A DNA stretch of 64,000 nucleotides from Porphyridium purpureum (GCA_008690995.1 VRMN01000003.1:1240001-1304000), one strand, 5' to 3'; shown: positions 6,089 to 64,000, counted from the first letter of the stretch. The notes: a model not told the origin generated them from the letters alone. Made by a program: numbers and translations.

Positions 6089-6506
6089 TGTCACAAAAAC
6101 CGGTTTTACGGGGTTTTGTGCCCCGGAGAGACCGCGAAGGCGTAGGGAAGAACTGCTACACGTCAGGCAGTGGGCCCGCCACCACGGACGTGAGGTCGGT
6201 CTGCAGGAGGTGATCTTCAGAATCCCTTGCTGCTTATAAGGACAACAAACCCTTTTTAACTAAATGTTCTTCACTACGCTCATCTCTGGTCCTCCTTTTT
6301 TTCCCGTCATTAGCTTGCGGGAGACGGAGTCCACTTTATATACTTCGCACGAGGTGACCGCTGTACGCCGGGCTGGCGTGGGACGAGATCCTGCGTGAGA
6401 ACTATCTTGCGAGGCTCGGCATGATCCCGTGCCTGTCGACAGCCCGGAGAAGCGATGCGAGGTGCATCTCTTAGTACAGTGGCTTGGAAGAGTGAACTTT
6501 CTGACA
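6089..6506 (-). repeat. 3' LTR of copia element 1
   Basis: Same length as 17828-18245 with no difference seen by eye. TG...CA ends and a minus-strand TATATAAA near 6335-6342. Confidence 0.96.
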
Positions 6507-6612: not shown

Positions 6613-9600
6613 CTACTGAAGTAGATACACACGCGCGCTGGCAACGTCCGCTAGTTTACCGTGGCGTAACACGCGTCGCCAGAGCGGGCAGTCGCGCTCT
6701 TTGGTGAGCGCGTCGGCAACATTGTTGGCGCCCGCGACATGCACAAGTTCTGCGATCCGCCCCAGCGCCATGCCTTCCCGGAGAAGCAGAAGTCGAATCA
6801 TCTGCCTCTTTTCCTGGAGAATGGAGCTGCTTGCAACCGAGTCGTATATTTGCTTTGAGTCAGTGGCGAGGACAATGGGCGCATCTAGCCCGCACTGATG
6901 TAGTTCGTTCTGTATGCCTTCAGCGAAATCGTATGCCAACACCAAAGCCAGAAGTTCAGCACTCATGGCTGAGTGTGCCACCTGTTTGGCCTTATGTGAC
7001 GAAGAATGCAGATGGTGTACTGTGTCAGATGAGTCACCAAGGAAAATCGCGAAACCAAGTTGGGAAGTGTGGTCGTGATTAGAGGCGTAACTGGCATCTG
7101 CAAATACGCGTATCCTTAGCGTCGCTGGGTCTAGTGGGGCATATCGCACTTGTACTCGGTGATGGTTCACATACTTGGCGAGTCGCACAACCTTTCTCGC
7201 GTGTTCTTGAGTAAAAGAGCTTGCTGTCACTTGGGCCAATTTGGCTGTTGCGCACTGGATGTCTGGGCGCGTGCCTGATGACAAGTAGGCCAGCTTGCCG
7301 CGTATTGAGCGAAATTCCTCGAAGGTCTGCACATTCGGGATGCTTGATCCGAAGCATCTTTGGACATAAGCATCTTGGTCTATTGTCAAAGTCCGTCCTC
7401 GGGTGGTGACATGTGTCCCATTGAATGTAAAAGGCGGATCGAAACGACCTTTGTTATCGAGTCCAGAGGCAACTTTGGACTCTGCGGCGAACGCCGCCTC
7501 TTCGCCAAAAATCAAAGAATCGTCCACAAGCACGCCGACACCGCCGAGGAATGATTCTTCGGATCGGAGATAGAAGACGCAAGGGTCGAGACCGGCCGTA
7601 TTAAAGCCTATATCACGGAGTCGCTTGGTCAGTGTGGCATGCCAGTAGGTCCCCGACTCTCTGAGTCCATACAATGGCTTGACTATCCGGGCGTATTGAG
7701 GGAATACACTTTCCGTGATTTTGGAAAGGATGTCCCGCACGTCAGACTTTAGCCGGATGAATACTTTGCGCGATAGGTCCCACTCACTCTGCAAGTATGC
7801 TTGAGCAAAATCGCGGTATGCGATTCTATGCCCCCGGATCACTGCTATGGAAAAGATCGTGCGCATCATAAACCGCGATAGCGTTGGCGCATTTATGGTT
7901 GTGGATTCCGCGCCCGGATCCCGTGTTTTGATGCCTTGTGCGACGGAGCGGGATTTGAAGGTACCGTCTGCCTTGACGGTGTTTTCCATTCGCGAGCCTA
8001 ATAAAGTCGCGCCCGGCGGTACTTCATGCACTGCTTCAAGAGTGCCTCGATCGATTAAGCCACGAAGCTCCTTTTCCTTTGCTTCTTTCCATAAATCATC
8101 CTCGACATGGTCTGCGCTATCGAGCTTGAGAATTAGATTTTCCCGTACGTCTGTGGCTCGCAAATATGGTTTCACATTGTGGATGCTGAATGATAATTGT
8201 CTTGCCGGACCTCTCATATTCGGCACGAGCACCCACACCCGGTTTCCATCAACCTTGGCGCACACAAACGGGCCCCCATACTCATACGCTTCTTCGCGGC
8301 GCACGAGGACCGGGACTCCAGCTTCAATTCTGTCCCCCTCCCGCGGAAATTCAGGGGCTCGGCTCGCCAATGCTGCTTTCACACGATATTCTGCAATGGC
8401 GCGTTCATACGCGCCCCGCGCAATTATGGCCGCGGAAAGGCGGGCAACATTCATTTCGCGGGAATCTTCTCGGGCCGATTCTGGTCGCATGGCCAGTCGT
8501 GGTATTGTCCCAAACACCAGAAGGCTGGGAATTACACCTTCTGGGCCGGTGGTTACATTGACCGCCCGTACAGCGATGGCGAGAGAGTCCTCTGGAGTCA
8601 AACCTGGTTGGTCGCGGCGGACTCGTAGATACGTTTTCCGTAGAGGCTCATGGTGTCGTTCCACCGTTCCTTGGGACCAATGCGACTCTATGGGGACGAC
8701 GTCTACGACAGAGCACTCCCCTAGCATGAGCGCCTTAAAGTCGGCTGACGCAAAATTACTCTGGTGGTCCACTGTGATTCGATGCGGACTACCGAATACA
8801 GATATCCATCCCCGGAAAAATAAACAGAACAGGTCTTGAGCAGTTTCTCCGGACACAAACCATGCCCCGTTGAGCTTTGTGCCATTGCAGACTGCGTGTA
8901 GAACCGGGATGGATGGACTTGTTGCATCTGGATTCAAGTACATGATGTCAAGCGATACATTGTGGTTAAATGAAACCTCAATTTCCGCAGCAACTTTAAA
9001 GCTGCTTCGCCGCCCGGAATACCACTGGCAAATATCACACACGCGCAGCATGTCGTGTAGTTTCTTGTACTGTTCTGATGACAACGGGTTCCCAGAAAGG
9101 CGCAGTATCTTCTTCATCTGGGCGGCGCTTGCGTGTCCGAATCTTTTGTGAATATTTTTGAGCTCGGCGTCTGTGAACAGTAAAGCTTGTTCGGATGACT
9201 CCACATGGAATAATCCTTTCGAAAACGAATTTGCCGGGATCGATATGTGTTTGGAAGGCGCCACTTCTAAACGGATGTCAAAGTTCGGCCCTTGTAGTCG
9301 TAGAGGTGGTGGTTCACGTACCACGTTCAGTCGGTGACGCTCGAGTTCGTCGTTGCCGATGAGGATGGGCAGATTTGAGCCTTGGACCACAATGAAATGG
9401 AAAGAAAGAAAGGCGTCTGCACCAATCCCGACACGCACGGTCCCGACTCCGACCGGCTCCAGGCGCTTTCCCCAGACAAGTGTTGGGAGTTCTTTTGGTA
9501 CGGGTTCAAGTGTCTTAGGTGACCCTACGGTTTCACAATATTCGAAAAATGCGGCCACGCCTGCGACCGAAATCGGGGCGCCCGTATCCACAAACACACC

Positions 9601-9666
9601 TCTCCAGCGGCGCAGTGGCGCTGTGCGGCCGGAAATCCCACATATCGCCACCTGCACCATAAGGAG
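6613..9666 (-). CDS. pol: Copia Pol polyprotein (PR-IN-RT-RNase H), in frame with gag across one TGA
   Basis: PR: VDTGA. IN: HKRFGH..CDIC, LD..DHQSNF..ERHH and GPF. RT: KSRSVAQG, DFAQAYLQ, KPLYGL and LVDD. RH: FADAS, SAELLA, TDSK and ADALTK. Confidence 0.95.
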   Translation of the reverse strand, partial: LLMVQVAICGISGRTAPLRRWRGVFVDTGAPISVAGVAAFFEYCETVGSPKTLEPVPKELPTLVWGKRLEPVGVGTVRVGIGADAFLSFHFIVVQGSNLPILIGNDELERHRLNVVREPPPLRLQGPNFDIRLEVAPSKHISIPANSFSKGLFHVESSEQALLFTDAELKNIHKRFGHASAAQMKKILRLSGNPLSSEQYKKLHDMLRVCDICQWYSGRRSSFKVAAEIEVSFNHNVSLDIMYLNPDATSPSIPVLHAVCNGTKLNGAWFVSGETAQDLFCLFFRGWISVFGSPHRITVDHQSNFASADFKALMLGECSVVDVVPIESHWSQGTVERHHEPLRKTYLRVRRDQPGLTPEDSLAIAVRAVNVTTGPEGVIPSLLVFGTIPRLAMRPESAREDSREMNVARLSAAIIARGAYERAIAEYRVKAALASRAPEFPREGDRIEAGVPVLVRREEAYEYGGPFVCAKVDGNRVWVLVPNMRGPARQLSFSIHNVKPYLRATDVRENLILKLDSADHVEDDLWKEAKEKELRGLIDRGTLEAVHEVPPGATLLGSRMENTVKADGTFKSRSVAQGIKTRDPGAESTTINAPTLSRFMMRTIFSIAVIRGHRIAYRDFAQAYLQSEWDLSRKVFIRLKSDVRDILSKITESVFPQYARIVKPLYGLRESGTYWHATLTKRLRDIGFNTAGLDPCVFYLRSEESFLGGVGVLVDDSLIFGEEAAFAAESKVASGLDNKGRFDPPFTFNGTHVTTRGRTLTIDQDAYVQRCFGSSIPNVQTFEEFRSIRGKLAYLSSGTRPDIQCATAKLAQVTASSFTQEHARKVVRLAKYVNHHRVQVRYAPLDPATLRIRVFADASYASNHDHTSQLGFAIFLGDSSDTVHHLHSSSHKAKQVAHSAMSAELLALVLAYDFAEGIQNELHQCGLDAPIVLATDSKQIYDSVASSSILQEKRQMIRLLLLREGMALGRIAELVHVAGANNVADALTKERDCPLWRRVLRHGKLADVASARVYLLQ

Positions 9667-10961
9667 TCATGCTTGCTCATCAGGATCGTTCTGGTCATAA
9701 TCGACTAGTTTTTCTCGCAAAGAAGCCACGCTTTCCTTTTCTGCATCAACATCCGGGTCGGGTTCGCCCTCATTCTCCGGGTCGACCCACGCGACTCTTG
9801 AGGGCGGGCGCCCGTGCTTTTTCCAGCACGTACTTTCTTCATGTCCTTTGATGCCACAAAAACTGCAAAGTTTGTCAGTTTTCGTAGCAAACCTCCTACG
9901 CGGTCCTTCAGCCTTCTGGAAGCCGGTAAGAATATCGTCACCCTTTCCGAAGAGGGTGCCCTTGTTGTAATCCATTCCTTTGAGTATGTGTGAGAACTTG
10001 AAAATTTTCTCTTCGGGATTGCGGGCCTGGATCAAGGTGAAGAGCGGTGAAAATGTCGACGCCATGATTGCGCGGGAGACGTGGCGGGCAAGGCCGTCGG
10101 GTGTGTTATCGGGTACGTCGAGTTCGCGTGCCTCGGCTTCCACAGCGGCTCTCAGCCTGACCAACGACTCGTGTCTCGATGGCGACGACGTGATAAACTG
10201 GTCGAGGTTGAGCCGGCTTAGTGCCAAAATACGCTGTTCTCTCTTATCGTTTGAGTCGAATGACGACTTGAGCATGGCAAGCATCGAGTCTAAGCGCTGG
10301 TGTTGGGCGCTCGACACGAGCGCTTCGGCGCTTCCGCCCAGAATAAGCGGAAGCGCGCTTCTCGCCGTAGAGTCGTCGATGCGGAATACCGTTCGCGCTT
10401 GTTCGAATTTTCGGTACCAAACGGCAAATGGCATGCCATTTGGCTCGCCAGTGAAGACATACCGCTCGAAGTATTTTGTAAAGGCGACTTCATTTGGACT
10501 CGAGGACGCGTTTCCTCTTCTCAGACCGCGCGACTCACCAGCTCCGCCAAGCTCGACGTAGTTTTTATCTTCGTTCCCCAATGAAGTCTGGGAGAATGCT
10601 CTGAATGAGTCCTGGATATTGCGCCCGTACTCGAAGTTTGGCACCCCGCGGAGGCGACAGTATCGCTGCCACGCGAGGAGGCTCGGCGGGCCACCGTTTT
10701 CTTTCAGTAGGTCGTACGACATAAGGCTCTCAACCATCATCATTTCAATGTCATCGTTCCCCATCTCGTCGGCAGTCCTTAGCATGTCCTCGACAATTTC
10801 ATTCTTCGCTTTGACGTCGAGCCATGGGAAGCGCTCTGCTGCGCGTTCAGGCCGGGATGCTGGTACCTGTGTGTCGAGTGCCGGGCTTGATCTCTGCTTC
10901 TCTGGTACCGTCGAGGATGCGCCCGCCCGAGACGAATGAGCGCCTCGTGTCCTCGAAGATA
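9667..10961 (-). CDS. gag: Copia Gag, 3' part; the first 12 codons lie at 17679-17715 on the far side of the nested element
   Basis: CSFCGIKGHEESTC zinc knuckle. The frame is open up to the inner LTR. Removing the inner element and one CAGG copy restores ATG TCC AGT ... TCC CCT GTA TCT TCG in frame. Confidence 0.9.
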
Positions 10962-10965
10962 CAGG

Positions 10966-11243
10966 TGCTGTGTACTACACCCGCAGCCACTACAACCCCT
11001 CTCTCACCTACAGGCACCCGCCCGGATCGAACCCCGACACCAACGGCACACCAACCTCTCCTCGCACTTCGGTACCTCCTTTACTTTTCGTTTAGCTCGG
11101 GCCGCACGGCGGCGTGGATTATATACTGCCGCAAAGCCCTGGATCTAACTCAGTGGTGGGTTTGGATGGGGTTTTGGAGGGTGGACTGTACTATGGAGTA
11201 CAGGTGCTACATGTGTACAGTGCATGGGGTGTACAGCATAGCA
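10966..11243 (-). repeat. 3' LTR of gypsy element 1
   Basis: Matches 17401-17678 with no difference seen by eye. Confidence 0.96.
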
Positions 11244-11259
11244 CATCTCCCCCACCGCC
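11244..11259 (-). promoter_or_regulatory. Polypurine tract of gypsy element 1
   Basis: Minus-strand GGCGGTGGGGGAGATG immediately precedes the 3' LTR. Confidence 0.75.
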
Positions 11260-11832
11260 TCAACCGCTTGTGCGCGCTCGGGGACCGGGAAGAGAGGAAA
11301 GGGAGGCTGGCTAGCCCGGAGGAAAACCACGCGGGAAACCGGGCAAAGGGGTCGCGGAAAACGACCGCCGGCCAGCCCCAAACAAGCAAAAAATATTGTG
11401 AACGACGGAAAACCCATGCGACCCGGGTGTACGCGGCGGCGTCTTTGTACCTCTTTTCCGTGAGTTTTCGGTTTTCTGGTGCCGACTCCAGACGAGCACA
11501 TTCCGGTGATCCAAGGTTCCGAGATAGAGGTGCAGGCTCAAGCAACACTCAAGAGGAGTTGATTGAAGCCTTTTCCCGCGAGGGAGGGCGCTTGCGGAAA
11601 CCTCGGCGATATGCAACATTTGCCGACCCACCATGAACAGAAATTCCTGATTTGCGGCCAAACGACGCGGCGAAAGTGCGCGAAATGCAATATTGTAACC
11701 TAGATGAGGCCCACGAAGCCAGTCATCACCAAAGCAGAGCTTCTCTCGCCCTGGAACCTCCAGACACTCGTTGCTCATCCGTTGACACCGCCTGCCTCTC
11801 AACACCATATCCTCACTGTACCCACCCTGTGA

Positions 11833-12024
11833 GCCGATACGCCGATACGCCGATACGCCGATACGCCGATACGGATAAACGGATAAACGGATAAACGGAT
11901 AAACGGATAAACGGATAAACGGATAAACGGATAAACGGATAAACGGATAAACGGATAAACGGATAAACGGATAAACGGATAAACGGATAAACGGATAAAC
12001 GGATAAACGGATAAACGGATAAAC
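11833..12024. repeat. Compound 8-mer tandem array (GCCGATAC)5(GGATAAAC)19
   Basis: Read directly from the sequence. It lies in the 3' non-coding region of the gypsy element. Confidence 0.97.
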
Positions 12025-12120
12025 GCCCTCCGCCTTTCTCACAGTCGAAGGTCGGGAAGGATAGAGAGGCAGCGCGAAAGGAGGCCGAGGCTCTTGCCAC
12101 ACGCCGGCGGCCCGGACCGA

Positions 12121-15100
12121 CTATAGAAAGCTCTCGCCCGACGTGGATCGCAATGCAGTGCCGCGGTGCAAGCTGCCGCGGTTGAACGCCCACACAAGGG
12201 CCGGCGGCAGGGCAGAGGAACTTTCCCACGTCCAGTCCTTCTTCCTTGCCCCCTTCCAAGCCACAAGATACTCGGCCCCGTCGCTCCGTTCGCGCCTGGC
12301 TTTCAGACCTGACACCTCAACGATGTCACCGTCGGCGTTTCCCAGGCTGGTCGAGCGCAATGTATCGTTGCTCAGTAGCGCTCGGTCCACTCTCTTCAGC
12401 CGTCGGCGATGCACGAAGAATTCTTTGCCGTCATGCGTCTTGAGCCATGCGCGATGCTCGTCAGCACGCTCAACTTCAAAAGGGCCTACCCAAGGGTCCG
12501 CCAGCTTTCGGCCCTCCCTGCCCAGCGGCGGCTTCCAAACGAACACACAGTCCCCCGGTTCAACGTCAACAATTCGACATGACGCGTTAAGCTCTCGACG
12601 TCGGGCGTCCCGGGTGGCATCATTTTCAACTACTGCGTTGTGCAAGGCCTCGAGCCTGTTGCGCAACAGAATCACAAAGGCGTCCTCCTTTCTTGCGCTG
12701 TCTTGTGGCGCTACTTCCCCTTCGGCGGCCGGGTTGAAGGGTCCCAGCCATGAATTGGCCTCTCGTCCGAACATGAGCTCGTAAGGCGTCCTCTGCGTCG
12801 TGCTGTGTCTAGTCTGGTTGAACGCGGCCACACAGGCAGGCAACCACAAATCCCAATCGTCCTCCGTGACCCACGAAGAAAGCATGTCGCAGAGTGTCCT
12901 GTTAAAGCGTTCGACCGCCCCGTTGGCTTGTGGGTTGTACGCTGTCGTAAACAGCTTTCTAACGCGCAGCATCTTGCATAACTGGCGTAGAACATCGGCT
13001 CGGAAACAGGGCCCGTTGTCGCTCAGAAGAGCTTCCGGTAGGCCAAAGATTGCAGCCCAACGATCCAAAAAAGCCTCGGCAATGGTCTCTGCCCGCTCGT
13101 CTCGCACACATATTGCTATGGTGAACCGAGTGAAAAGGTCGCTCACTACCAGGATTTTTGAATATCCAGTGCTTGTTCTCGGCGTTACCGTTAAAACGTC
13201 CGCAGCAACGACCTCGAACCGCCGGGTAACGACCCGCTTTCCCATGCGGTGGCTTGTGACAGGGGTCGGTGAGCCCTTTCGCGCGGCGCAAGTTCTACAT
13301 TGCTTTACGAACTCCAAGACGTCTTGCAGCCAGCCAGGCCACCAAAACTCCGCGTCGGATATACGTGCCGCCGTCTTGGACACTCCGAAATGCCCGCTGA
13401 AAGGTGCTGAGTGGTAGACATCTAAAATACTGCCCACTAGTCCATCAGGGACTACCTTGCGCGGTTTGTCTTTCAGCGCGGCCCACGCAAGTCCACTTTC
13501 GTCCAGATAGTACTCCGGATAGGAATATACTCGTGGGGACTTTTGCAATGCCGCGAGCTCTTTCGATAGCAGCTCGTCCTCCCTGTACGCTGCCTTGAGC
13601 CTCTCCGGAGATGGGAGCTCGTAGCCCACGGCTTGACCAATCGCGTGCGGATCATCTTCATCTGTCGGTACTGCAGAATCCTCTGCGACGGGATCTCGTC
13701 GCGCACGCGTGCGCACTGCGTTCAGTTCGAGACGTGACAGTGCGTCCGGCACTCGATTCAAGCGGCCTTTAACATGCTCGATGGTAAACGAAAAGTCCTG
13801 AATTGTCAGTGCCCAGCGCGCCAGCCTTCCTCTTGGCTCTTTCATGGACAGGAGCCAACGGAGAGGTTCATGGTCAGTGCGAATGCGTACGGTTGTGCCG
13901 AAAACATAGTGTCGTACCTTTTTGAGACACCAAACTACTGCAAGGCACTCCAGCTCGGTGACCGTATAATTTTGCTCCGCCGACGTCAAAGTCCGCGACA
14001 AAAAAGAGATTGGCGCAAGCTTCCCGTCCGGCATCTCCTGATACAACGCACCGCCCAGTCCTATCTGAGAGGCGTCGGTGTCGAGAACCTTTGGCGCGTT
14101 CGGATCCGCCAACACCAGCATCACTTTGTCCGACGTGAGCACCTCTTTGAATCCGTCGAAAGCGCAGCGCGCGTCTTCCCCAAAGCGTGCCTGCCAGCCG
14201 GCGCACTCTAGATCTGTATTGCGGTGTGCCTTCTTTGCATTGACGTCCAAGCCATCCAGCGCTCTCCGGAGCGGCGCCGCGCGATCCGAGAACCTGGGTA
14301 TGAAGTCCCTGAACCAATTCACAAGCCCTAAGAAACGCAGCAGCTCTGTTGGGCCCTTAGGGTAAGGCCACTTGAGAATGGCTGCCGTACTTTTTCCCCC
14401 CCGGCCGAATGCGGCCTTCTTCCACTTCATGTCCCAGGAAACTGAGCCTTGCCGTAGCGAATTTGCACTTTTGCAGGGAAAATGTCATGTTCTCTTCCTG
14501 GAACTTGCTTAGCACTACGTCTAGGACCTCCAAATGTTTTTCTATCGTTTTGGTCCCTGTCAACATATCGTCTAGGTACATCAGGATGTGTTTCCATCGA
14601 AGCGACCCAAGTATCGTGTTCACAAGTCTCTGGAAGGTAGCGGGCGAGTTTCGGAGGCCCTGTGCAAGGACTGTGTAGCGGAACAGTCCCTCCGCCGTTA
14701 TCATACCGGTGAAGTCCCGCGAGGACTCCGCGAGGGGAACTTGGAAGAAACCGTCAGCCAGGTCCATCACAGAGAAGACTCCACACGGGAGGAAGCGTCC
14801 CATCCAATCTAAGCATTCGCGCACGTCAGGGATTGGGTATCTATCTGGAACGGTGTGGCTGTTCAATTGGCGGAAATCCGTAGTCAGCCGCCACTTACCG
14901 TTTGGCTTTCGAATGATAACGTTCGCGCTGGCATATGGGCCCGAGCAAGGCTCGAGGATGCCCAAAGATAATAAACGCTGGACTAGCGTGCTCTCGGCCT
15001 CTCTTTCAACTTCAGACAATCTACGCAGGCGGGCCGGGGTAAGACGTGCGCCTGGATCAATAGCAATGGAGTGCTCAGTAGACCGTGTGCGACCTGGACG

Positions 15101-15919
15101 GTCCCGGAACACCCTCCAGTGCTTGAGCAACACCGCCCGAAGACCACTTTGGTGAAGCACGTCTACGTGGCTGAGGTCTACATCCATAATGCGAGCACGC
15201 GTCTCCTCTTCGTCCTCTTGCATTACGTTTGGACTCCCGAGCTTACTTGCGTCTCTTTGCTCTACCCCAACGCAATCAATTAAGTTCAGTGATTTTGCAG
15301 GCGCTCCCTCTAAGAGGCGAATCGTGGCGCCGTCTTTCATTTCGAGCTCGCCCTTGCCAAAGGAAAGCGCGTTAGCATTAGCAACCCAGAAATCCCATCC
15401 CAGGATAAGATCTTCGATAAGATCTTCAGCAACTAATGCGCGCACCTGGTACATTGACTGGCCAATTTGTAGCTGAAGCTCTGATGCTCCGACAATACCG
15501 AGGGAGCTTCCGCCTGCAGTTCGACACTCCTGCGCCACGTCCTGTATTACGGCTCCTAGAGAACTGACCCACTTTGCTCGCGCATATACACCGGCAATCC
15601 CTACAGCACCCGTGTCGGCAAGAGCATCTACGGCAGATCCCGAGACCTTGACAGGCGTGCGACCCGATCGCATGACACGTGCTTTGGCCAACACGCGCAC
15701 GTACGGGACTCTGCCAGAAGCAGATTCCACCAGATGGTTTAAGACTTCCAAGGTTGGACTCGCTCGCAGGATTCGCTTCGGCCCTAGAGCTAGATCATCA
15801 ATCACGGAACTTGTTCGAATTTCGGTGTTCTCTTCACCTACGCTGGGCTTGCGATATCCCAACGCTTCCATGGCCTCATCCACGGCCCTCCCATTCCACG
15901 CTACCACGCGTCCGCGTAG
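12121..15919 (-). CDS. pol: Gypsy Pol (PR-RT-RH-IN-chromodomain) with a single 1-nt frame break near 14390-14402
   Basis: PR: ADTGA. RT: WRLTTDFRQLN, DLADGFFQV, QGLRNSPATFQR and YLDD. RH: DTDAS, ELECLA, TDHEPL and PDALSR. IN: H..GH..CRTC, SDNG, VERFN and WVGPF. Chromodomain: EYLVAWKG..DWTWE. Confidence 0.93.
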
Positions 15920-17131
15920 TCACTCGCTCGCAGGCGCCGCCGAGGTAGCTCTGCGCACCGGTGCTGGCGCCAGGCAGTCTCCGGCATAGTGTCCTGTCCC
16001 TTGGCAGCGGCGACACCCCACTCGATCCGAGTTGGCCATTAAACGGTTCCCCCCGATTCCGGGCACGCCCAAAACGGCTGCCACCCGGTCCGCCAGGAAC
16101 TCCACTTCGATCAACTTTTGATCCTCTGTCTCCTTCGCCGGGTCAGGAGGTACACCCCCAAGATTTGGTTCGGAATCATGAAGTACATTGACCGCAGCCC
16201 CCGGTGGACGGAAAACCGGTCTCCCTTGGGCAAAGCTTCGTCCCTTCTCCAGTGTCGACCCGTAGTTTTTCTCCAACGGTAAAATCATTCCGAAGAATGT
16301 TTCTGTGGCAGCGTGGAGACGACCCATCTGTTGAATATCTCGAGGAAGTCCTCGAACAAAGTCGCTCTTCATCGACGCCTCGGATTTCCCAAGAGCAGCG
16401 CCGAGCTCGTACACGGCGCGGTGATAGTTTGCCACTGACTCGCCCTTCGTCCATTTCCTCTCGCAGTACTCTTGTTCCACAGATTCCAAAAGCTGAGGAG
16501 ACCAGAAAACCGAACGCGCCCACGCCCAACGCTGCTGAGCCGAGTACTCCGTCGCAAGCTCGCCGTTCTTCTCGGCAGTGCGATAAACCTGCTCAGCCGA
16601 ATCCGCAAAAGCTAGAACCACAAACTTTGCCGTGAGGTCGGCTGGAATGTGGCGACATGCTTCCACCCAGGTCAAATACGTGGTTTCGAACCTGAGATCA
16701 CGCGCGTGACGGATGCGACAGTCTTTCATCTCGAGAATGACCGACCTCTTCATTTCTTGCTCGAGTTTGATGAGCCGGAGCTCCTCAGTGGACATTGTCA
16801 ACAGGCTCGAACCATCAGAGACCGCCAGTGCAGTCCCGATTCTGGACGCGCGGCTGGGCTCCCCCGGTGGCTCGGCACCATGTTCGGCGGATCTTGGCCG
16901 AGAACCGCGATCCTGCGCGTCCGCAATCGTCGGTTCGTCCAGCTGCGGTCCGAGACGCTGAACGATCATCTCCATTCTCTGACGTATCTGGTCAATGCTT
17001 TCGCGCAGCTGCTCCTGGCCGGATGCGATCAGCTCTACACGTCCCTGGAGTGCCGCCACATCAGCCGTGACGCTCGCTACAGTTGGACGCCCGGCCATTT
17101 CCCCCAAGATATCCGACAGGCGTCCGGACAT
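15920..17131 (-). CDS. gag: Gypsy Gag
   Basis: 403 aa with an N-terminal coiled coil, a retrotransposon gag-like ESV..Y...FVRGL segment and the CRRCQGTGHYAGDC knuckle. Confidence 0.9.
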   Translation of the reverse strand: MSGRLSDILGEMAGRPTVASVTADVAALQGRVELIASGQEQLRESIDQIRQRMEMIVQRLGPQLDEPTIADAQDRGSRPRSAEHGAEPPGEPSRASRIGTALAVSDGSSLLTMSTEELRLIKLEQEMKRSVILEMKDCRIRHARDLRFETTYLTWVEACRHIPADLTAKFVVLAFADSAEQVYRTAEKNGELATEYSAQQRWAWARSVFWSPQLLESVEQEYCERKWTKGESVANYHRAVYELGAALGKSEASMKSDFVRGLPRDIQQMGRLHAATETFFGMILPLEKNYGSTLEKGRSFAQGRPVFRPPGAAVNVLHDSEPNLGGVPPDPAKETEDQKLIEVEFLADRVAAVLGVPGIGGNRLMANSDRVGCRRCQGTGHYAGDCLAPAPVRRATSAAPASE

Positions 17132-17400
17132 AAATCAGATAATCAGTCAGTCCCTAGAAATCAAACGCAAAAGTGTGCAATGCGTGTGCTGAAGCCACCC
17201 GGCTTCCCACACAAGTTCAAAAACCAAACAGAACTATCTTTTCAAAGCCACCCGACTTCAAACGAGACACCAGAGCCACCCGACCTGGCACCTCTCCCCC
17301 ACGTCGCCCTGGTTCCGGGCCACCCGACCACCAACCAGACCGGCCCGCGCGCTCCCACAAGAAATTACTCAAGAATGGGGCAACGCTAATTCTAGAATTA

Positions 17401-17678
17401 TGCTGTGTACTACACCCGCAGCCACTACAACCCCTCTCTCACCTACAGGCACCCGCCCGGATCGAACCCCGACACCAACGGCACACCAACCTCTCCTCGC
17501 ACTTCGGTACCTCCTTTACTTTTCGTTTAGCTCGGGCCGCACGGCGGCGTGGATTATATACTGCCGCAAAGCCCTGGATCTAACTCAGTGGTGGGTTTGG
17601 ATGGGGTTTTGGAGGGTGGACTGTACTATGGAGTACAGGTGCTACATGTGTACAGTGCATGGGGTGTACAGCATAGCA
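17401..17678 (-). repeat. 5' LTR of gypsy element 1
   Basis: Direct repeat of 10966-11243, with minus-strand TATATAA inside. Confidence 0.96.
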
Positions 17679-17827
17679 CAGGGGAAGTTGGGGCGGCTTC
17701 TCCCTCACTGGACATTCTGACCCGTCAGCAGACCGCTAATCGCTTCACTCAGGCCCGACTCCTTGCTGGATAGATCAAAGAAAGCGGACGAAGAGAGCAA
17801 ACGGGCAAGCACAAGTGAATTTCGAAA

Positions 17828-18245
17828 TGTCACAAAAACCGGTTTTACGGGGTTTTGTGCCCCGGAGAGACCGCGAAGGCGTAGGGAAGAACTGCTACAC
17901 GTCAGGCAGTGGGCCCGCCACCACGGACGTGAGGTCGGTCTGCAGGAGGTGATCTTCAGAATCCCTTGCTGCTTATAAGGACAACAAACCCTTTTTAACT
18001 AAATGTTCTTCACTACGCTCATCTCTGGTCCTCCTTTTTTTCCCGTCATTAGCTTGCGGGAGACGGAGTCCACTTTATATACTTCGCACGAGGTGACCGC
18101 TGTACGCCGGGCTGGCGTGGGACGAGATCCTGCGTGAGAACTATCTTGCGAGGCTCGGCATGATCCCGTGCCTGTCGACAGCCCGGAGAAGCGATGCGAG
18201 GTGCATCTCTTAGTACAGTGGCTTGGAAGAGTGAACTTTCTGACA
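17828..18245 (-). repeat. 5' LTR of copia element 1
   Basis: Direct repeat of 6089-6506. Confidence 0.96.
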
Positions 18246-23371: not shown

Positions 23372-23609
23372 CTTGGCGCACGGCCCGCGTGCAACCTCAC
23401 CCAACAAGCCTGACGCGTTCCTCCTGTCCCTTGTCCTCCTGACCTCGAGTGACTTGATGGCACGCGAAAGGTCGAAGCGAGCCGTCTTTCGCGCCAAAAA
23501 GGAAGAACGAAAAAAGGAGGTACAGTGACGGAACTGTACCGTAAATCGGAGGACAAGTCAGTGAGCCAAGCCGGGGTCTGGCGAGTCCGATGAGCGTCGA
23601 CGTAGCAGC

Positions 23610-24812
23610 ATGGTGAGGCGGTCTCCACAGTTCGTGAATGGCTCGTTCGCATGGTGTGTCCCGGCACCGCTCGCGACAGATCAGTCTTCCGGTGCCGTCG
23701 TGAGTTGGGACACCGATCATCGCGATGTGCGAGCACGCGTGCTCGGGCCTGATCGGCAGAAGGACCTTGGATGGATGCGAACGCGTCGCTTGGAAAGGAC
23801 GCGCTCGAGGAGGTGCCGTGCTGGGAGACTTTTCATGGATGTGAGGGAGAGGGCTGCGAACCACGAGATGTATGCACCGCCGACAGGATCCTTCTATGTC
23901 CTGGATGGAGCGAATCTGGTGTACAGGTGCTATCATGCCCTGGCACGCACCATGGGCGAGCGGCTGGACGCAAGCGGGGATGACACACAAGCCGTGTTCG
24001 GAGTCGTTATGCAGCTCACCAAACTTTTGAGGGAGCAAGTCGGCCACTCACCTCTGGCATTGGTGCTCGAGTCTACGGGTTCGTCGTCGCGCACCGCAAT
24101 GCACCCTGAGTACAAGGGCACTCGAAAGGAAACTCCTCAAGGCGTCGTCAGTTCGTTTCCGTACGTCGAAGCGCTCTTTGTGGCGTGCGGCTTTCCAGTG
24201 TACAAAGTGGACGGGTTCGAAGGGGATGACATCATCGCTGAGCTTGCTGTGCAAGCCGCCCGAGCGGGCCAGAAGGCCGTGATTATTTCCGGGGACAAGG
24301 ACTTTAATCAGTTGCTCCGACAAGACTCGATCGAGATTCTGAAACTCACGAACAAGGGATGTGTGCCATACGAGGAGGCCGATTTTCGCAGAGAATATGG
24401 TGACTTGCGACCCAGCCAATTTGTCGACCTGCTCGCATTGATGGGCGACACCGCAGACAACATTCCGGGTGTGAGTGGCATCGGTCCCAAGACCGCACAA
24501 AAGCTCGTGCTAGAGTATGATTCAGTCGAAGGTATATTTGACAACATCGACAACGTGCGCCCTCTTCGAACGCAGAACCTGCTTCTCGCTGCCGGTCGCG
24601 AGCGTGTGATTCTGTCAAAAGCGCTCGTAGCCTTCATTTCGGACGGCTTGTCAAATGACGCTGCGAGTCGATTCAAGTGGGGAGATGCACAGCTGCGGAG
24701 AGCCCCCGACATCGTTGCAGTGGATGACATCTTCAGTCGGCTGCGCATCGGGCGCAAAAAGCTGGACGCGCTTTGCACGTTGCTCCGCGCAGCAGGAACG
24801 AACACGCACTAA
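23610..24812 (+). CDS. Stand-alone 5'-3' exonuclease (PolA N-terminal / flap-type), probably organellar; copy 1
   Basis: Motifs LDGANLVYR, YKGTR, GFEGDDII, SGDKDF and GDTADNIPGV.GIGPKTA (H3TH). No polymerase domain. Start codon uncertain. Confidence 0.9.
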   Translation: MVRRSPQFVNGSFAWCVPAPLATDQSSGAVVSWDTDHRDVRARVLGPDRQKDLGWMRTRRLERTRSRRCRAGRLFMDVRERAANHEMYAPPTGSFYVLDGANLVYRCYHALARTMGERLDASGDDTQAVFGVVMQLTKLLREQVGHSPLALVLESTGSSSRTAMHPEYKGTRKETPQGVVSSFPYVEALFVACGFPVYKVDGFEGDDIIAELAVQAARAGQKAVIISGDKDFNQLLRQDSIEILKLTNKGCVPYEEADFRREYGDLRPSQFVDLLALMGDTADNIPGVSGIGPKTAQKLVLEYDSVEGIFDNIDNVRPLRTQNLLLAAGRERVILSKALVAFISDGLSNDAASRFKWGDAQLRRAPDIVAVDDIFSRLRIGRKKLDALCTLLRAAGTNTH

Positions 24813-25056
24813 ACAGCTATTTGAACCGAAAATCTCTTTCGCGGTCCATTGAAATGGGTTGCCACACCGTCAAGTTGAGACCGAAGCATCGACGCCGCAG
24901 CTTGCGGTGCATCCACTTCGGAGAGAGGTACAGCGCCTTACAGATGAGGTACTGTGGTCTCCAGTTTGCGTTTGACGGAATTCTGTGGGACGCGCGCCAT
25001 CGAAGGGAGTTGTATCTCACACGCGTGGGAATGCCCGGCGCGTCAACAACTGCACC

Positions 25057-26298
25057 ATGAATGCCCATGCGCTCCGACGCCCGCCCCGATGCTGGACGAC
25101 TCGCTTTAGACTGCGGGCTTGCACCGGATACGACCGCTCAGTGATTACGATGCATGTCGAACGGGCAACAGATCGTGCGGTTTACATGAATCGCGCGCGC
25201 GAGTTTGCGTCCGACCTTGTTCAGACAACCTCGACAGAGGCAATCAATGTGGCGACGGGAAGCGTGGATGTCTTGGTGAAAGCACAGGATAAAACCGGCG
25301 TGGTGCATGCGAATAACGTACTTGGACCTGTTTTTGCGCCAGCCACGGGCTGGTTTTTTATCATCGACGCGTTGAATTTGGTGTTCAGAAACTACTATGC
25401 ATTGGCTGGGCCGATGGGCGACCGTTTGGACGCCAGTGGGGATGACACTCAGGCCGCATTCGGGGTTGTGAATCAGCTGACGAAACTTTTGAGAGAGGAG
25501 GTGAAGCACGCCCCGCTGGCCGTTGTCTTTGAATCGACTGGCTCATCATTGCGAAGGAAAATGCACCCAGCTTATAAGGGCACCAGGAAGAAAACTCCTC
25601 CCGGAGTCCGCACGGCACTCCCGTACGTGGAGGCAATAATCAAGGCTTGCGGTTTCCCTGCATTTAAGGTCGATGGATTTGAGGGCGATGACGTCATTGT
25701 TCAGCTTGCGCTGAATGCAACCAGAGCCGGCCAGAAGTGCGTGATCGTGTCAGGAGACAAGGACTTTAATCAAGTGCTGAAGCAAGATTCCATTCATCTC
25801 CTTAAGCTCATGAACAAAGGTTATCAGAGGTACGAGGAGGCCGATTTCCGTAGGGAATTTGGAGGTTTGCGACCGGACCAGTTTGTCGACCTGCTCGCCC
25901 TAACGGGTGATGCAGCAGACAGCATTCCAGGAGTGAAGGGTATTGGCCCAAAGACGGCGCAAAAGCTCTTGCTGGAGTTCGAGACCGCAGAAGGTATCTT
26001 TGATAACATTGACAAAGTCAAACCTGTTCGCACTCAGAAGCTGCTCAGCGCAGCTGGGCGTGAACAAGTTGCTCTCTCGAAAGCGCTCGTGCGCTTTATT
26101 TCCGAGGGATTGGGGGATCATCCCGGGGCTCCATTCCGATGGGGAGACGGTCAGCTACGGAAAGAGCCTGACGTGATTGCGATGGATGACATTTTCAGCC
26201 GGCTCCGCATCGGCCGGAAGAAGCTCGACCCTCTGTGTGCTATATTGGAACAAGCGCGGCAGTCCACATCAACGACACCGCTTGAAGCGCCGAGATAG
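25057..26298 (+). CDS. Stand-alone 5'-3' exonuclease; tandem copy 2
   Basis: Same motifs (IDALNL, GFEGDDVI, SGDKDF, GDAADSIPGVKGIGPKTA) with a different N-terminal extension. Start codon uncertain. Confidence 0.9.
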   Translation: MNAHALRRPPRCWTTRFRLRACTGYDRSVITMHVERATDRAVYMNRAREFASDLVQTTSTEAINVATGSVDVLVKAQDKTGVVHANNVLGPVFAPATGWFFIIDALNLVFRNYYALAGPMGDRLDASGDDTQAAFGVVNQLTKLLREEVKHAPLAVVFESTGSSLRRKMHPAYKGTRKKTPPGVRTALPYVEAIIKACGFPAFKVDGFEGDDVIVQLALNATRAGQKCVIVSGDKDFNQVLKQDSIHLLKLMNKGYQRYEEADFRREFGGLRPDQFVDLLALTGDAADSIPGVKGIGPKTAQKLLLEFETAEGIFDNIDKVKPVRTQKLLSAAGREQVALSKALVRFISEGLGDHPGAPFRWGDGQLRKEPDVIAMDDIFSRLRIGRKKLDPLCAILEQARQSTSTTPLEAPR

Positions 26299-32711: not shown

Positions 32712-32999
32712 CACTCCGCCTCTCCCTCCTCTCGCCCTCCCTCTCTCTCTCTCTCTCTTTCCTGCTACACTTTCAACGCTCAGGAAACTCGTTACGTTCA
32801 ATTCGGTTTAGCGGCGAAGACCGATAAACCGGTCGATCATTCTTGTGACGAAAGTACAGTGCTGTCATTGACTGAACCTGTGAGTACAGTGGCAGATTCA
32901 AAACTGGGTGGGACGCGAGTTTGAAGCTCACGAAGAACAAGATGGGACAGAGCGGGGGTGACAAAGGGAGACCAAGAGAACAAGAGTGTTGGAGCGAAC

Positions 33000-35900: not shown

Positions 35901-36173
35901 AGAAGAATTTCCGCGCAGAGCATCCGGGCCCTGACTGAACTCTTACCTCGAACTATCCGCCTACTCGGTGACCAGGAGCGATGGCATGCGGCGGTCCAAA
36001 AAGGGATGGCGATGGCCGCGCAGACCGATCAAATGCAGTGGATGCATCAGCATCCGAAGGTTACACACGACTTTGAGCTTGCGCTCACGCGGTACGCGCT
36101 TGAGAGTGAGGAGAAGAAGCTGAGAAAAGTACTAAGCGAGAGTGCTCAGGTGTGGAATAGAGAAGTGAGATGA
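33000..36173 (+). CDS. Large alpha-helical ARM/HEAT-like protein, possibly a divergent importin-beta family member
   Basis: Uninterrupted ORF of about 1057 aa, Leu/Ala-rich helical pattern throughout. No diagnostic motif recognised. Confidence 0.45.
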   Translation: MEGSEHVRERTDWALDVLERVGDHGEAVSEASEVLWKVQSEPVLLRAVLTSWLQRPGSRSQTYYVYAAASLGHLVRVSAHLNAEDVLRDTWKLLAEWHRAMHNDASLAEKRKAPALASLCEASALALANLLHTERSSLFCDQRFSELVAAVPSARQPLLIQLGLLSDPGTGGALLQPEFINALPMYEQWLSEKAVWVLSDACRVILDEAPQREQALRVVGAWIRFAHELTHIVETLNVAIRDTGVALLAAEVMAELFVSRKRVGASLVARVASAHATLLDEIRTSRGHFDSVDNCMVNIIEHAVCECADSVCEANMLPLLSSGNLDREEAGLTVAHLLLKGLQCDSHSARLASISAWNNILLILNAQNQGSKQSCSQETRALFFDQLIPQLVQRSVDVLGTVFNLCVERGGQPVVLLPSEDSSRQDRESIDQMFHETKAALADLFFNIGGFLGSSFFCDMEGRFARLEVNPMIAELFACFVAVASAHASPPFRVKMQHRELDAYVRIVNTASNFLARTAGASTEVDHGHLEVQGMALAEAAAVTVVGIFGAHVASRLAPPMYEEALNQLCYRLRCPAIMHDASFALLAMSKADSARFMVCVDFLMKWVFDEKAARNGSFVSDRHGQEKVRAKDAERRICSALATSIPTHSDEEKVWEALSGLAGLYISVLESLTMKLSTPPLTDQGRAQILLHWADDLNHDLSCLACIVSGVSKTVTAQKLMDRISSGLCRLATFYLSNEEVSDRLASIFELALIGNGEDDTEQDQIVHCSSKARLEWNCKRNCVECVLFGLHCFQTSLSVDATGHDGLRWLQCASRMMQAVIEQECSHTGESLALVNAVEKTVRDLVSRFGLNGVAEHVKECRALNALDRALLSGEVDAAAAVLQQLNSMTLRSMSLDTGSVLCRSKDVITVSLLGLAASNESRTGVAACRLWKHLLNEASALEFLSEHVVLIESFISTAIFGVLTRRISAQSIRALTELLPRTIRLLGDQERWHAAVQKGMAMAAQTDQMQWMHQHPKVTHDFELALTRYALESEEKKLRKVLSESAQVWNREVR

Positions 36174-59358: not shown

Positions 59359-62300
59359 TGTCAATTATTCGTGTGAATAATTGACCAAGTACAGGTGTAG
59401 CTGTACCAAGTTACTTTGAGGGTTACCCGAACCCTCAATTTCTTGACCAGCGTATAAATACGCGGCGAGCGGCGGCGGGAAAGTAGCACTAGAACAAAAA
59501 TAAAGGTTAAGGGTGTATGGAAAAAGAACAAACCTTCCGCCCCGTGGGATAGCCTGACGGGGGATAGAGATGAACGACAGTGATCACTCGGGATCTCTCC
59601 AGTGTTAGAAGAAGTGTGGTGTCTGACTTAAGATGACTCGTCGGGGTGCTAACGTCGCGGCGGGTGCGAGTGGCGAACGTGAGAGAGAAGTGTCTCCCGC
59701 TGGAGAAGGGATCGATGCGGGACATATGACGCAAATCAGTCGCGACGAAGGCTCCACGGAGTCCAGCGACCAGTTCGATCCCTCTCTTCTAATTAGCATG
59801 GATCTTGGTAGTTTTTCTACCGAAAAGAGGCTGGCGATTGAGGACTTACGGGACTTCGTCGTCATGTTCCGAACCTACAGCGGTGTGGCCTTGATGGTGC
59901 AGATGACTCGCCGTCTTCCTCGTTCCAGTATCCTGGATTGTGGCCTCTTTGCACGCGAACAGTTTGCTTCATTTCTGACAGCAGCACAAGTACCAGGTTT
60001 TCGTCTATCTGACCCCGGTGTACCCACGATTGATCGTTTTCGCCGGATTTATGAAGACAGTAATGATTCCCGATCTTCTGCGACGGTGCTAGATGCGAAC
60101 GGACGTACTCCGCAACGGGGAGCCGCACCTGTGACGGATACTTGGCAGCAAGACTCTGGCCGATTGCAAGCAAGTACCGTAGGTCATAGTTCTCAGCCCG
60201 TGGTGCCACCAATCGTTTCTGTGCCCGGCAACGAATATGGTCTTGCGAGAAACTCATCCACAGTTTCGAAAATGATTAGATCGGAGGACATTTTTTACAT
60301 GGACGAATACAAGGATAAGATATCATACTACCGGTGGAAACAAGAAGCCCTTCTTACGTTTGCGCGAGCTGAAGTCACCGAACACCACCGTGCTCCGATC
60401 CTCGGCATGATGCTGGGCGGAACGATCAAGATGTTTTATACCGACAAAGTCCAGTACAATAAGAGCCTGAACGATGCTTTCGAATTACTTGATTCCAAAG
60501 TTTTTACCGGGGAATTTCATGAACAGATGGTTGATTTATTTGACGGGGTGAAGTTCCGCCACATTGCGAATCGCATGCGTAATAGCGGCAACAAAGGGAT
60601 TTTACATGTACTGTACCATGATACTCTGAAGTACGCGCAAGGCTGCTTACCGACGGAATATCATGGCGAACGCCGCCTCCTCCGGGCTCTGCGCAATGCA
60701 GTAAGAGATGAAAGTTTCGCATCTGCAGTCCTGCTGAAGGATTTCAACACTGCCGATGACCTATACGCTCATCTGGTGGGATGCATCAATATACAGTCGC
60801 GGATTGTACGACCGTCTTTGCCTGCATCCCAGCCACGCGCCCAACATCAGTTGTTCACCAGAGATTTACGTCATCAAGTGTCTTCCTCCTCTGCCGCTGG
60901 ATCGCACGCGAAGAAATCCAGTGCGCCGTTTTGCCGCAATTGCAGCTCTCCTGAGCACCTTGCCATGCAGTGTCCAGAACCGCCCAAATGTCATAATTGT
61001 GGCTCTACAAGTCATTTCATTGCACAGTGCTCGGAGACATTGAATCAAAAATTGCAACGAGCGCCTGTTCGAAATATTCGCGCGCTTCTCTTCAGTAATG
61101 AGGATATGCAAGCGTCCGATATTGATCCAGTGTTGGAAAGTGTTGAGTCGTTTGAAGAACACAATGCTTCAGGACACGACAACAGCATAGAGGACGAACT
61201 ATTTTATTCCGCTGTCAACGACATGCATATTAAGTATGAACATCTGCAAAGTATCGCGTCAGCAACTCGCTCGTCAGGAGCCATCGGGCTTGCGCTGCTT
61301 TCGCAACGTATGATTTCAGACTTCTGGGGTGTATGCGTTGATACCGGAGCAAGCTCCAACTTTTGCTCACTACCACAGTGGCAAGCGTTTTGCGCATTAT
61401 CGAACAGCCCGTCTTCGCTGCGTCCAGTCACAATGCGCTCCGTCGGTCTCGATATCGGCATATTTCGGATCATCGGAACTGGAGAGTTTCGTCTTCCGGT
61501 CTCGTCTGATGTGTTTTTGACCGTGGATGTGGACGTTCTTGATACTTCCAAAGCAGAAGATCCTCAGTGGCCTCCACTGGTCTTGGGACTGTTGACCATG
61601 GATCATCACTCATGCTTTCCGAACAATTTGACCGACGCGTTGGTGTTTCCAACGCTTCAGATTGAGATACCTCTTATCCGCAAATTTGGAAAACTTTTCA
61701 TCGACCCTGCCATTTTCGCTCGAGCGTCTCCGCTGTTGACGTACGCGGAGCTGCGAAAAATTCACAGAAAGTTCAATCACGCGAGCAGCGAACGCATTCA
61801 GAGAATATTTGATATCGCCGACCAACCTTTGTCCGAAAACGAGTTCAGTATTCTAGCAAGACTATCGCGCCAATGTCACATCTGCCAGCGATTCTCGAAA
61901 GCACCCGCGACGTTTCGCCTGTCCGCCAATGTCGAAGTCAATTTCAATCATACTGTGCAGCTCGATACATTCTACCTGCCGCACACCCAAGGCGAACGAC
62001 CTATGCCCGTGATGCATATCGTATGCGAAGGCACCCGTTTTATGTCTGGTCAATGGTTGAAGCACGACTCTACATCGGGTGCTTTATTCGAGATTTTCTT
62101 CCTGTGCTGGATTTCCGCGTACAATGGCGCACCACACATCGTCAAAGTCGACGCAGGATCCGCTTACGCAAGCCGGGAATTTCAGGCCCTTGCAAATGTG
62201 CACGGTATTCACGTCGACGTACAGCCGATCGAAGGGCATCAATCGATCGGACGAGTGGAACGCGCGCATGGTATAGTCGGTATTATGTACGAGAAAATGA

Positions 62301-62707
62301 TACTTGAAGATCTAGACGCAGACGCAGATGAAACGCTTGCACACTGCTTCTTCGTCGCAAACTCATCCTGTGGGCTTTCGGGAATCCCACCATGCCTTAT
62401 GGTGTTTGGCTCGATGCCTCGGATGGTAATCAGTTCGATTCAAGATGTTCCCTCTCAAGCCGCGCGGATCAATGCCCTTGTTCTCGCACGTCGTGTGTAC
62501 GAAGAATTCATCGCGAAACAGTACTTAAACATCGCGCTGAGCCGTCGCCACGCAGCGCTCGGTTCCGAAATGCAAGACACCGGTCCTCCTGTGCCTGGCG
62601 ACCTAGTAATAATCGCCCGGGAAAGAAACCGCAGACGGAATTATGATGGGCCCTATCTGTGCGTCGCTGTTGATGGCCATAAGGTCTCAGTTCGAATGCC
62701 GCCCACC
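59359..62707 (+). mobile_element. Second Ty1/copia element (5' LTR plus gag-PR-IN), interrupted at 62708; remainder outside the window
   Basis: Putative LTR TGTC...GACA at 59359-59579 with TATAAATA (59453) and AATAAA (59499). It cuts the Tc1 transposase, and its PR/IN are homologous to those of copia element 1. Confidence 0.85.
59633..62707 (+). CDS. Copia Gag-PR-IN in a single ORF, truncated by an insertion; the ORF tail to 62839 is LTR-derived
   Basis: Two CCHC knuckles (CRNCSSPEHLAMQC, CHNCGSTSHFIAQC), then VDTGA, HRKFNH..CHIC, LD..VDAGS..VERAH and GPY. Confidence 0.9.
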
Positions 62708-64000
62708 TGCCACGATTTGGGGGGTTACCCCAATCGTCCGCTCGTGTCCCAGACCCCAAGCGTTCAAAACCAACGTCTTTTACTCTCTCACCTCTCCTCT
62801 TCTGTCTCTCTTGCTCTCTTTCTCCCATCCCCGCCGTGAAGCGGCAGAGCTTAAATACCCTACAACTAGACCCTAAAGCTAACCGGACCGCCCAGTTATT
62901 TTGGGGGCCGATGCACTGTACCGAGTGGTACAGTGCCCATTAGAATAGACTTTAGACTATAGCAAAAAAGATTAAAGAGGCGATTAGAAAAAGCTGCAGG
63001 TGGACAAAAGGGGTGGATCGTTACACATCTCACGCAACCCCTAAGCCCTACATCTGCAAGAAAAAGTCCTGGCAGCCCGTCGGAGTAACCCGTGGGGAAC
63101 CGTGCAAAGCGCGACCGAAAATGCGCGCGGCTACCGGACATAAAAAAAGAAAGAAACAACAGAAAAAACGCGCGAACCGAAGTCCGACCCAAGAGGTACA
63201 GTGTAAGTACTGTACAGCAAGTGACAATCAATTAAAAACACCCGCTAGTCGTTACCTTTTATAACAAAACATGGTAAATTTAGTACAAACTCGTTGAAGT
63301 AGAGATTTTACGCGCGAAGGGAAAGTGACAAACGATTAAAAACAGAGCAAGTTCAGAGAGTTTACCGCAGCAGTGAAGAGTAAAAGCGAGTTCTGAAAGC
63401 GCCACGTCCTTCCTTGGCCCAAGACCTTTCCAACGAGTCCCTTTGACACACTGTCACGCGAGCCTGTGACGCAGGAGCCCTCCATTTTCGCCAGGGCGTC
63501 CTAATCTGCCGTTCGCAGCTCTTTCACGCTATAAAACTGCTGGAATTCACCGTAAACGTGGCCTATTACATGTCTCCGAACATGGTCAATTGAATCCAAG
63601 TCTCGCGGGAGCGCAGGACTATCTCTAGCTTCCACATATTTGCTTTTCAATCGGTATCAGGTTTGCTCTGCCTTGAGGCAAGCTACATAGAGCAACATAA
63701 ACATGAAGCAACTGAGCTTTTTTACGGCTCTCATATTCACCCGAAATCTGTCCAACATGTTCACGCTTCTTGCGCTCCTCTCAATAGGGATACGATGGTC
63801 GCATGCGAAGGAGAAGTCTAAATTTTCGGGTGCGGTTGGCACTCCCAAGTTATCAAGCTGTGTGCACCGAACGTACAGATGAAATGGTTGACTGGGATAA
63901 GCTCTGACCCTCCCTAAGAGAAGAGGACACCATCAGAACCCTCCAATTCGAGCCTTTTAGGTCCGTAAATAACACTTGCAAGTTTTTCTCTGTTTTCAGC
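62708..64000 (-). mobile_element. Second gypsy-type element: 3' LTR (62708-63025) and adjacent internal region; runs off the window
   Basis: Imperfect inverted termini TGCCACGAT...ATCGTTACA. It is followed by CATCTC exactly as the gypsy-1 3' LTR is, and 63070-63122 resembles 11307-11363. Confidence 0.72.

Follow-up and report, generated by a model that had tools for sequence, protein, structure and literature searches.

How a retrotransposon whose gag and pol genes lie in one reading frame, parted by a single stop codon, comes to express its polymerase is the question raised by a Ty1/copia element of the red alga Porphyridium purpureum. The window analyzed here, a stretch of 64,000 nucleotides, is eukaryotic, gene-dense DNA of approximately 55% GC with long uninterrupted open reading frames (ORFs), and the element lies on its minus strand (table 1).

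Anatomy and State of the copia Copy

The assignment to Ty1/copia followed from the order protease (PR), integrase (IN), reverse transcriptase (RT), RNase H (RH) between two LTRs flanked by a target duplication, with domain matches that included RVT_2 and gag_pre-integrase. The 5' and 3' LTRs were identical at 418 of 418 positions, and AGGTC (5 bp) was present on both flanks. The element also carried the motifs listed for GalEa elements, namely TGT...CA LTR ends, a 5-bp target site duplication (TSD), DTG(C/A), HHCC, and ADxxTK at the end of RNase H, and the palindrome after its 5' LTR resembles CHSeq1 of the fungal members (PMC5445492). However, fungal GalEa elements are described as having one large ORF and LTRs of approximately 235 bp (PMC5445492), whereas the present element has 418-bp LTRs and two ORFs; because the in-frame UGA breaks the single ORF, we classified it from its sequence as GalEa-like and not as GalEa. 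GalEa-type copia elements are already known from Porphyridium as CoPorcru1/2, listed by EST accessions only (PMC5445492, PMC3587641). No tRNA primer site was obvious in this element or in the gypsy element nested within it, and no tRNA genes were found in the window.

The nested element is a Ty3/gypsy chromovirus with PR, RT, RNase H, integrase, and chromo domains. Because it interrupts gag at codon 13, the copia copy in the window is disabled and can yield neither Gag nor Gag-Pol from the normal start; one of its RT motifs, moreover, carries a Ser private to this copy, the residue being Phe in four other proteins. The rest of its coding sequence is close to that of its siblings: the first 12 gag codons match the N-terminus of the 443-aa Gag at four other loci, the gag remainder differs from these proteins by 0 to 4 substitutions, and Pol differs from the P. 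purpureum Pol models by at most three substitutions and one inserted residue, mis-modelled C-termini aside. The family is young and multi-copy in Porphyridium. The initial annotation had argued from the identical LTRs that a chance nonsense mutation at the gag/protease boundary was less likely; the LTRs are indeed identical, but the argument is weak alone, since this very copy carries a gypsy element in gag and a private RT substitution, and identical LTRs are no guarantee of an undamaged copy.

Several minor features of the locus were also noted. The gypsy RT frame breaks at about 14390-14410 (minus strand), near a G run followed by an A run, and because other loci have continuous Pol models, this break reflects either damage to the window copy or a slip in its assembly. 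A 14-nt palindrome directly follows the gypsy 5' LTR (17387-17400, minus strand), and a tandem array of 8-nt units in two variants lies near the gypsy 3' end (11823-12025). Two public gene models at this locus, KAA8495793 and KAA8495794 (P0006 and P0197), are chimeric, the chimeras being copia Pol joined to a neighbouring host ORF and gypsy Pol joined to copia Gag.

Table 1. Coordinates of the retroelement features in the window
Feature	Position	Strand	Remarks
Ty1/copia element, whole	18245 -> 6089	minus	LTRs and 5-bp target duplication
copia 5' LTR	17828..18245	minus	418 bp, ends TGTCA...TGACA
copia 3' LTR	6089..6506	minus	
Palindrome, 10 nt	17819..17828	minus	takes in the last copia LTR base; at the expected place of a tRNA primer site
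copia gag start	17679..17715	minus	ATG at 17715, first 12 codons; then the nested gypsy
Ty3/gypsy chromovirus, nested	10966..17678	minus	identical LTRs of ~278 bp; TSD CCTG, 4 bp; in copia gag codon 13
gypsy gag/pol junction	15917..15925	minus	GAG UGA CUA; TGA at 15922-15920
copia gag remainder	9670..10961	minus	CX2CX4HX4C zinc knuckle; last residues ...DPDEQA
In-frame UGA, gag|pol	9667..9669	minus	context GCA UGA CUC
Spacer CUCCUUAU	9659..9666	minus	7-8 nt; includes bases 1 and 2 of the in-frame AUG 9660-9658
Predicted stem-loop	9609..9658	minus	arms 9658-9646 / 9620-9609, 12 bp, one 5' bulge
Inner helix of predicted stem-loop	9642-9638 with 9628-9624	minus	
copia pol frame	6613..9666	minus	1,017 codons: protease (DTGA, Asp at 9588), integrase, reverse transcriptase, RNase H
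Third copia (control, separate element)	59633..62839	plus	continuous gag-PR-IN frame, truncated before RT

The Gag/Pol Junction and Its Predicted Hairpin

Re-reading of the minus strand gave GAG CAA GCA TGA CTC CTT ATG GTG CAG at the copia junction (TGA at 9669-9667), with a stop-to-stop frame of 435 codons before the UGA, 1,017 codons after it in the same frame, and the protease Asp 27 codons downstream; junction sequence, frame, coordinates, and pairing arms were all as first annotated. The spacer is pyrimidine-rich and begins with CU, and the in-frame AUG at 9660-9658, with a pyrimidine (C) at -3 and G at +4, contributes its own G as the first base of the predicted stem. The minimum-energy fold (-34.9 kcal/mol) contained the anticipated main stem together with both the inner helix and the outer one (CUCC/GGAG). 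The spacer had been put at exactly 8 nt, which is possible but not exact: because U9659 can pair with G9608 (pair probability 0.73 in a 141-nt context), its predicted length is 7 or 8 nt. No Rfam family scored above threshold, with one chance-level match (E 2.5). A pseudoknot candidate was rejected: the best loop-to-downstream match, 8 bp including G-U pairs, begins right at the stem foot and competes with the inner helix.

The annotated strength of the stem was upheld by shuffling, by ranking across codons, and by synonymous recoding. Among dinucleotide shuffles, 2 of 200 folded as well as the native sequence over 81 nt and 6 of 200 over 77 nt; with longer segments the counts were 12/200 (101 nt), 14/200 (150 nt), and 25/200 (107 nt), and the junction was less significant (z between -1.8 and -1.2). 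Over the 66 nt that follow the copia stop, a length picked with the stem known, as was the 53-nt length, no shuffle in 500 was as stable. When structure at +8..+60 (53 nt) was compared after each in-frame codon, the copia stop ranked 4th of 1,428, the three codons above it all belonging to one gag hairpin near 10365, and at +8..+117 (110 nt, a length not picked in this way) it ranked first of 1,409. With the peptide held fixed, synonymous recodings folded as well in 3 of 5,000 cases (66 nt) and 1 of 5,000 (+8..+60), and the z of -3.92 for the junction block was reached by none of 64 other 22-codon blocks (nearest, -3.79). These results indicated a predicted junction stem that exceeds chance and keeps register with the stop. 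Strength alone is nevertheless no proof of a role, and because an equal hairpin occurs near 10365 without an adjacent stop, strong stems in this element need not be recoding signals.

Strong hairpins within copia gag were located on the minus strand at about 10315-10370 and 9853-9890, the first of them about equal in stability to the junction stem (z -3.79 against the synonymous null). Both are possible packaging or dimerisation signals.

The copia UGA appears to be a family trait and not a lesion. Four other annotated P. purpureum loci (KAA8496782, KAA8498123, KAA8498007, and KAA8490309) encode a 443-aa Gag with the same end residue, 0 to 4 residues off the window copy, the stop codon at these loci being inferred from protein ends and not from DNA. 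Their accession numbers adjoin those of four separate Pol models that start at a Met two codons after the stop; the fifth Pol model is that of the window locus, and this AUG is kept in 5/5 Pol-cluster proteins. In majority contigs, which hide rare variants, positions 9602-9672 were unchanged in 7 of the 7 runs compared (of 24), drawn from seven studies, although two of these runs (X1 and X5) are possibly the source of the window DNA itself. The proposal that the stop did not arise as a chance nonsense mutation was thus borne out by a Gag end that is the same in five annotated loci and by the unchanged runs, and siblings lacking the stop, which would have spoken against it, were not seen: none of the five Pol-cluster proteins listed is stop-free.

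The junction stem was invariant among near-identical copies. One diverged relative (record 7 of run X5) is gap-free over the junction, with 75 differences in 331 nt (77% identity); none of the annotated families compared agrees with it in the differences listed or in its loose ends, and it appears to end within integrase. No close-relative DNA was found in the viral contigs or prokaryote genomes searched, and a direct Gag search gave no match; blanks from the tool used for this last search carry little weight, because Gag models did turn up in the cluster list.

These data also bear on the idea that the stop goes back to an old nonsense mutation and that the lineage is non-autonomous, depending on a helper element for its movement. 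The same genome does contain related families with continuous models (P0003, P0014, P0017, and P0018), but the closest of the continuous models to the window copia are only 37-44% identical in the PR-IN region. In addition, four loci have retained intact frames for Gag as well as Pol, and the stop sits at the Gag/protease border with no stop-free member seen and a stem beyond chance behind it; such a lineage is therefore highly improbable.

Proposed Readthrough and Other Possible Routes to Pol

Retroelements need an excess of Gag, and their Pol is normally supplied fused to Gag (PMC2194720). The copia family has the gag-stop-pol layout, with a single, family-fixed, in-frame stop at the Gag/PR border. 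Because this fixed stop is combined with a UGA-C context and a stem in register, we proposed that programmed, stem-stimulated UGA readthrough likely produces a minor Gag-Pol fusion, and we consider that the copia junction is probably a real, functional recoding cassette. Every step beyond the RNA sequence is one that we infer: most ribosomes on full-length RNA would release the 443-aa Gag, while a few percent, delayed by the weak UGA-C context together with the hairpin at the mRNA entry channel 7-8 nt on, would decode the UGA with a near-cognate tRNA, by precedent one for Trp, Cys, or Arg. A ribosome at the stop would melt the outer CUCC/GGAG helix, and the 1,461-aa Gag-Pol would be packaged with Gag and cleaved by the protease. 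The working cassette would be carried by intact siblings and not by the window copy. Among the 12 papers listed by a literature search, none reported ribosome profiling in Porphyridium.

The initial annotation had likened the junction to gammaretroviral and alphaviral readthrough cassettes, and the alphaviral half of this comparison fits. The Type II cassette of VEEV likewise combines UGA-C, a spacer of 8-9 nt, and a stem of 11-12 bp with a one-base 5' bulge, and its stem stimulator is reported to raise readthrough about 10- to 14-fold (PMC3159437). The copia stem begins within the 7-12 nt after the stop that characterize Type II signals, but the Type II context given in the same source reads either UGA-CUA or else UGA-CGG (PMC3159437), and copia has UGA-CUC. 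The gammaretroviral half does not fit, since the Type III signal consists of UAG-G, a purine-rich 8-nt spacer, and a compact pseudoknot, whereas copia has UGA-C and a pyrimidine-rich spacer. Functional importance of such stops has been reported for the chromovirus Tj1, whose transposition requires the gag stop even when the host is a foreign one (PMC4600332).

Several observations count against readthrough, among them the UGA-CUC context, which is off the Type II consensus, and the silence in yeast of the look-alike junction of Tca2; the equally strong gag hairpin near 10365, the weaker z in longer segments, and the lack of an Rfam family above threshold also belong here. Tca2 (pCal) of Candida albicans has a one-frame gag/pol split by one UGA, an 8-nt spacer, and predicted RNA structure, as does the window copia, although its spacer is purine-rich and its predicted structure is a pseudoknot, in contrast to the pyrimidine-rich spacer and predicted stem-loop seen here (PMC2194720). 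In an S. cerevisiae reporter, the 300-nt Tca2 junction was reported to give 0.3% readthrough, no more than a control stop, and to hold a weak promoter; in Candida, Tca2 Pol appears to derive from gag-pol RNA (PMC2194720).

This minor promoter is the precedent for a second route, in which Pol comes from another RNA made from a weak promoter inside gag or by a rare splice removing the stop. Such a splice is feasible on paper, since four frame-keeping GTR..YAG pairs (one with its acceptor at 9652) would remove the stop and retain the protease motif, and plant and fly copia elements are reported to splice near the protease (PMC5580714). However, the copia splicing described there starts from a single-ORF element and yields an RNA for Gag only, opposite to what the present junction would require (PMC5580714), and no TATA-like box occurs in the 430 nt before the copia stop. 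Contigs of X6, X12, and X16 showed no joint across the stop, a weak indication because contigs drop rare forms; those of X6 and X12 each span a stretch of 4,441 nt in one piece. Of the runs compared, X16 alone is on record as RNA. Moreover, a separate RNA leaves the register of the stem unexplained, and we regard this route as quite improbable.

Alternatively, Pol could be made separately, by reinitiation or internal initiation at the AUG two codons past the stop. This AUG is in frame, upstream of the whole protease motif, followed by G at +4, and conserved in all five Pol-cluster proteins, and in another P. purpureum copia family both models (P0021 and P0174) begin at a Met approximately 30 residues before the protease motif. 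Pol models that start at Met are no proof of use, though, as gene callers take the first Met after any stop. The AUG at 9660 also has C at -3, compared with a purine in 15 of 19 first AUGs among 20 long host ORFs chosen from 79, and it sits at the stem foot. The UGGGA motif, which has a role in calicivirus reinitiation, is absent from the 130 nt before the copia stop, and a competing out-of-frame AUG overlapping that stop opens only 45 codons. A free Pol would, in addition, need its own route into the particle. The nested gypsy has its first in-frame AUG only at the 17th codon past its stop, and Tj1 Pol, as published, lacks one. Separate initiation is thus unlikely, and readthrough is preferred as the source of Pol.

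The layout itself, a rare one, is known from fungal elements, and the surprise is moderate. The initial annotation had held that copia elements normally have one continuous gag-pol ORF, a view that missed the published gag-UGA-pol copia elements Tca2 and VdLTRE5 (PMC3441728; PMC5580714, PMC7175516). In VdLTRE5 of Verticillium dahliae, gag and pol are parted by UGA as in the window copia, and VdLTRE1 of the same host is single-ORF; the host is a fungus, and the available text reports no stimulatory structure (PMC3441728). For red algae, no gag-UGA-pol junction was found in a literature that was mostly non-subscription (Gao et al. 2003 might list such cases), and the available text of a 2026 review (PMC13517186) has no retrotransposon passage. 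The interest of the family lies in how Pol is expressed from gag-UGA-pol copia elements, for which the sole tested case in the sources at hand, Tca2, failed to show local readthrough. It offers a compact, statistically strong candidate cassette of alphavirus-like geometry with intact recent copies, together with a comparison set in the same genome consisting of the nested gypsy with a bare UGA-CUA and single-ORF copia relatives. It also matters for annotation, as public gene models split Gag and Pol or bridge them by false introns.

Related Elements and the Host

The gypsy junction reads UGA-CUA, which fits the Type II sequence consensus, and it has no outstanding stem: its 3' structure was unremarkable, ranking 135th of 890 and 257th of 871 codons. 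Gypsy Gag models of seven loci share their end residue and one more is truncated, so that the gypsy UGA, too, appears to be fixed in its family. One fused gypsy model jumps from residue 363 to 411 and thereby loses the zinc knuckle and the stop, a jump that is most likely a false intron. The claim that two unrelated superfamilies share UGA-CU therefore holds insofar as the codon appears family-fixed in both; a shared cassette design does not follow, because gypsy has the context but no unusual stem. The triplet pattern of the gypsy junction is known elsewhere, as the fission-yeast chromoviruses Tj1, Tosmo1-3, and Tcry1 carry Glu-UGA-CU(A/G) between gag and pol (PMC10085805, PMC4600332); these elements belong to the gypsy superfamily, whereas the window copia has Ala-UGA-CUC and a predicted stem.

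The initial annotation had taken the two junctions as a hint that Porphyridium translation is unusually permissive for UGA-CU and drove both superfamilies to converge, a view that is compatible with readthrough. Both elements, nested at one site, do carry an apparently family-fixed UGA-CU, and 8 of 12 copia-clade representatives are broken or gapped at the gag/protease border in their protein models, the other four being continuous. Whether host genes avoid such ends had been posed as a check. Among 20 long host ORFs, TGA is the stop in 10; C follows it in 4 of the 10 and CT in 0 of the 10, with approximately 0.6 of 10 expected by chance, and the sample is too small to show avoidance. A special host is also at odds with the continuous-frame copia in the same window, with the conservation of Glu-UGA-CU in five fission-yeast chromoviruses, and with the listing of UGA-C and UGA-CU as leaky in many eukaryotes (PMC10085805). 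The gypsy signal may thus be inherited, or may use a common eukaryotic leaky context, and a specially permissive host, being unsupported, is very unlikely.

The state of the gag/protease border was read on DNA in two families, the window copia (stop) and the third copia (continuous), whose family has full-length members of 1,545 aa; the 12 representatives above, 11 of them from P. purpureum, were scored on protein models. The catalytic DTG is absent from the P0012 family (3/3 members read) and from P0013, and the distance from zinc knuckle to integrase is 153 and 186 in these, against 215-258 elsewhere; the gap in P0009 (distance 228) is ambiguous. Because annotation bridges the known gypsy stop with an intron, such model gaps probably conceal a stop or a frameshift. 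On the trees, from which P0016 was omitted because it is likely a fragment of the P0013 family, the split or gapped label was not significantly clustered, either for integrase (3 changes; 199 of 500 shuffles as low) or on a quick RT/RH tree (2 changes; 132 of 500 as low). Metagenome relatives comprised 19 loci, all distant (26-32%); among the eight that were scored, five have the zinc knuckle and protease in one open frame, two are open to the contig end, and in one a TAA precedes the protease motif by 69 codons. We tentatively suggest, as a scenario that is conceivable but on balance doubtful, that the UGA is an old signal of the whole Porphyridium copia radiation (families 40-70% alike), masked by false introns, with several switches between readthrough and single-ORF expression, and that the hairpin both stimulates readthrough and masks the AUG. 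If true, this would provide, for the first time in red algae, a set of natural readthrough cassettes that comes with its own single-ORF controls.

The region of the third copia (59380-64000) contains two zinc knuckles and is cut at approximately 62700 by unrelated sequence, which may be another mobile element. Elsewhere in the window, tandem paralogue pairs were observed at 23565-26298 and 38093-41016 (two 5'-3' exonuclease genes; two Sel1-repeat genes), and two long ORFs, at 41407-46863 (1,818 codons) and 32925-36173 (1,082 codons), are without a Pfam match.
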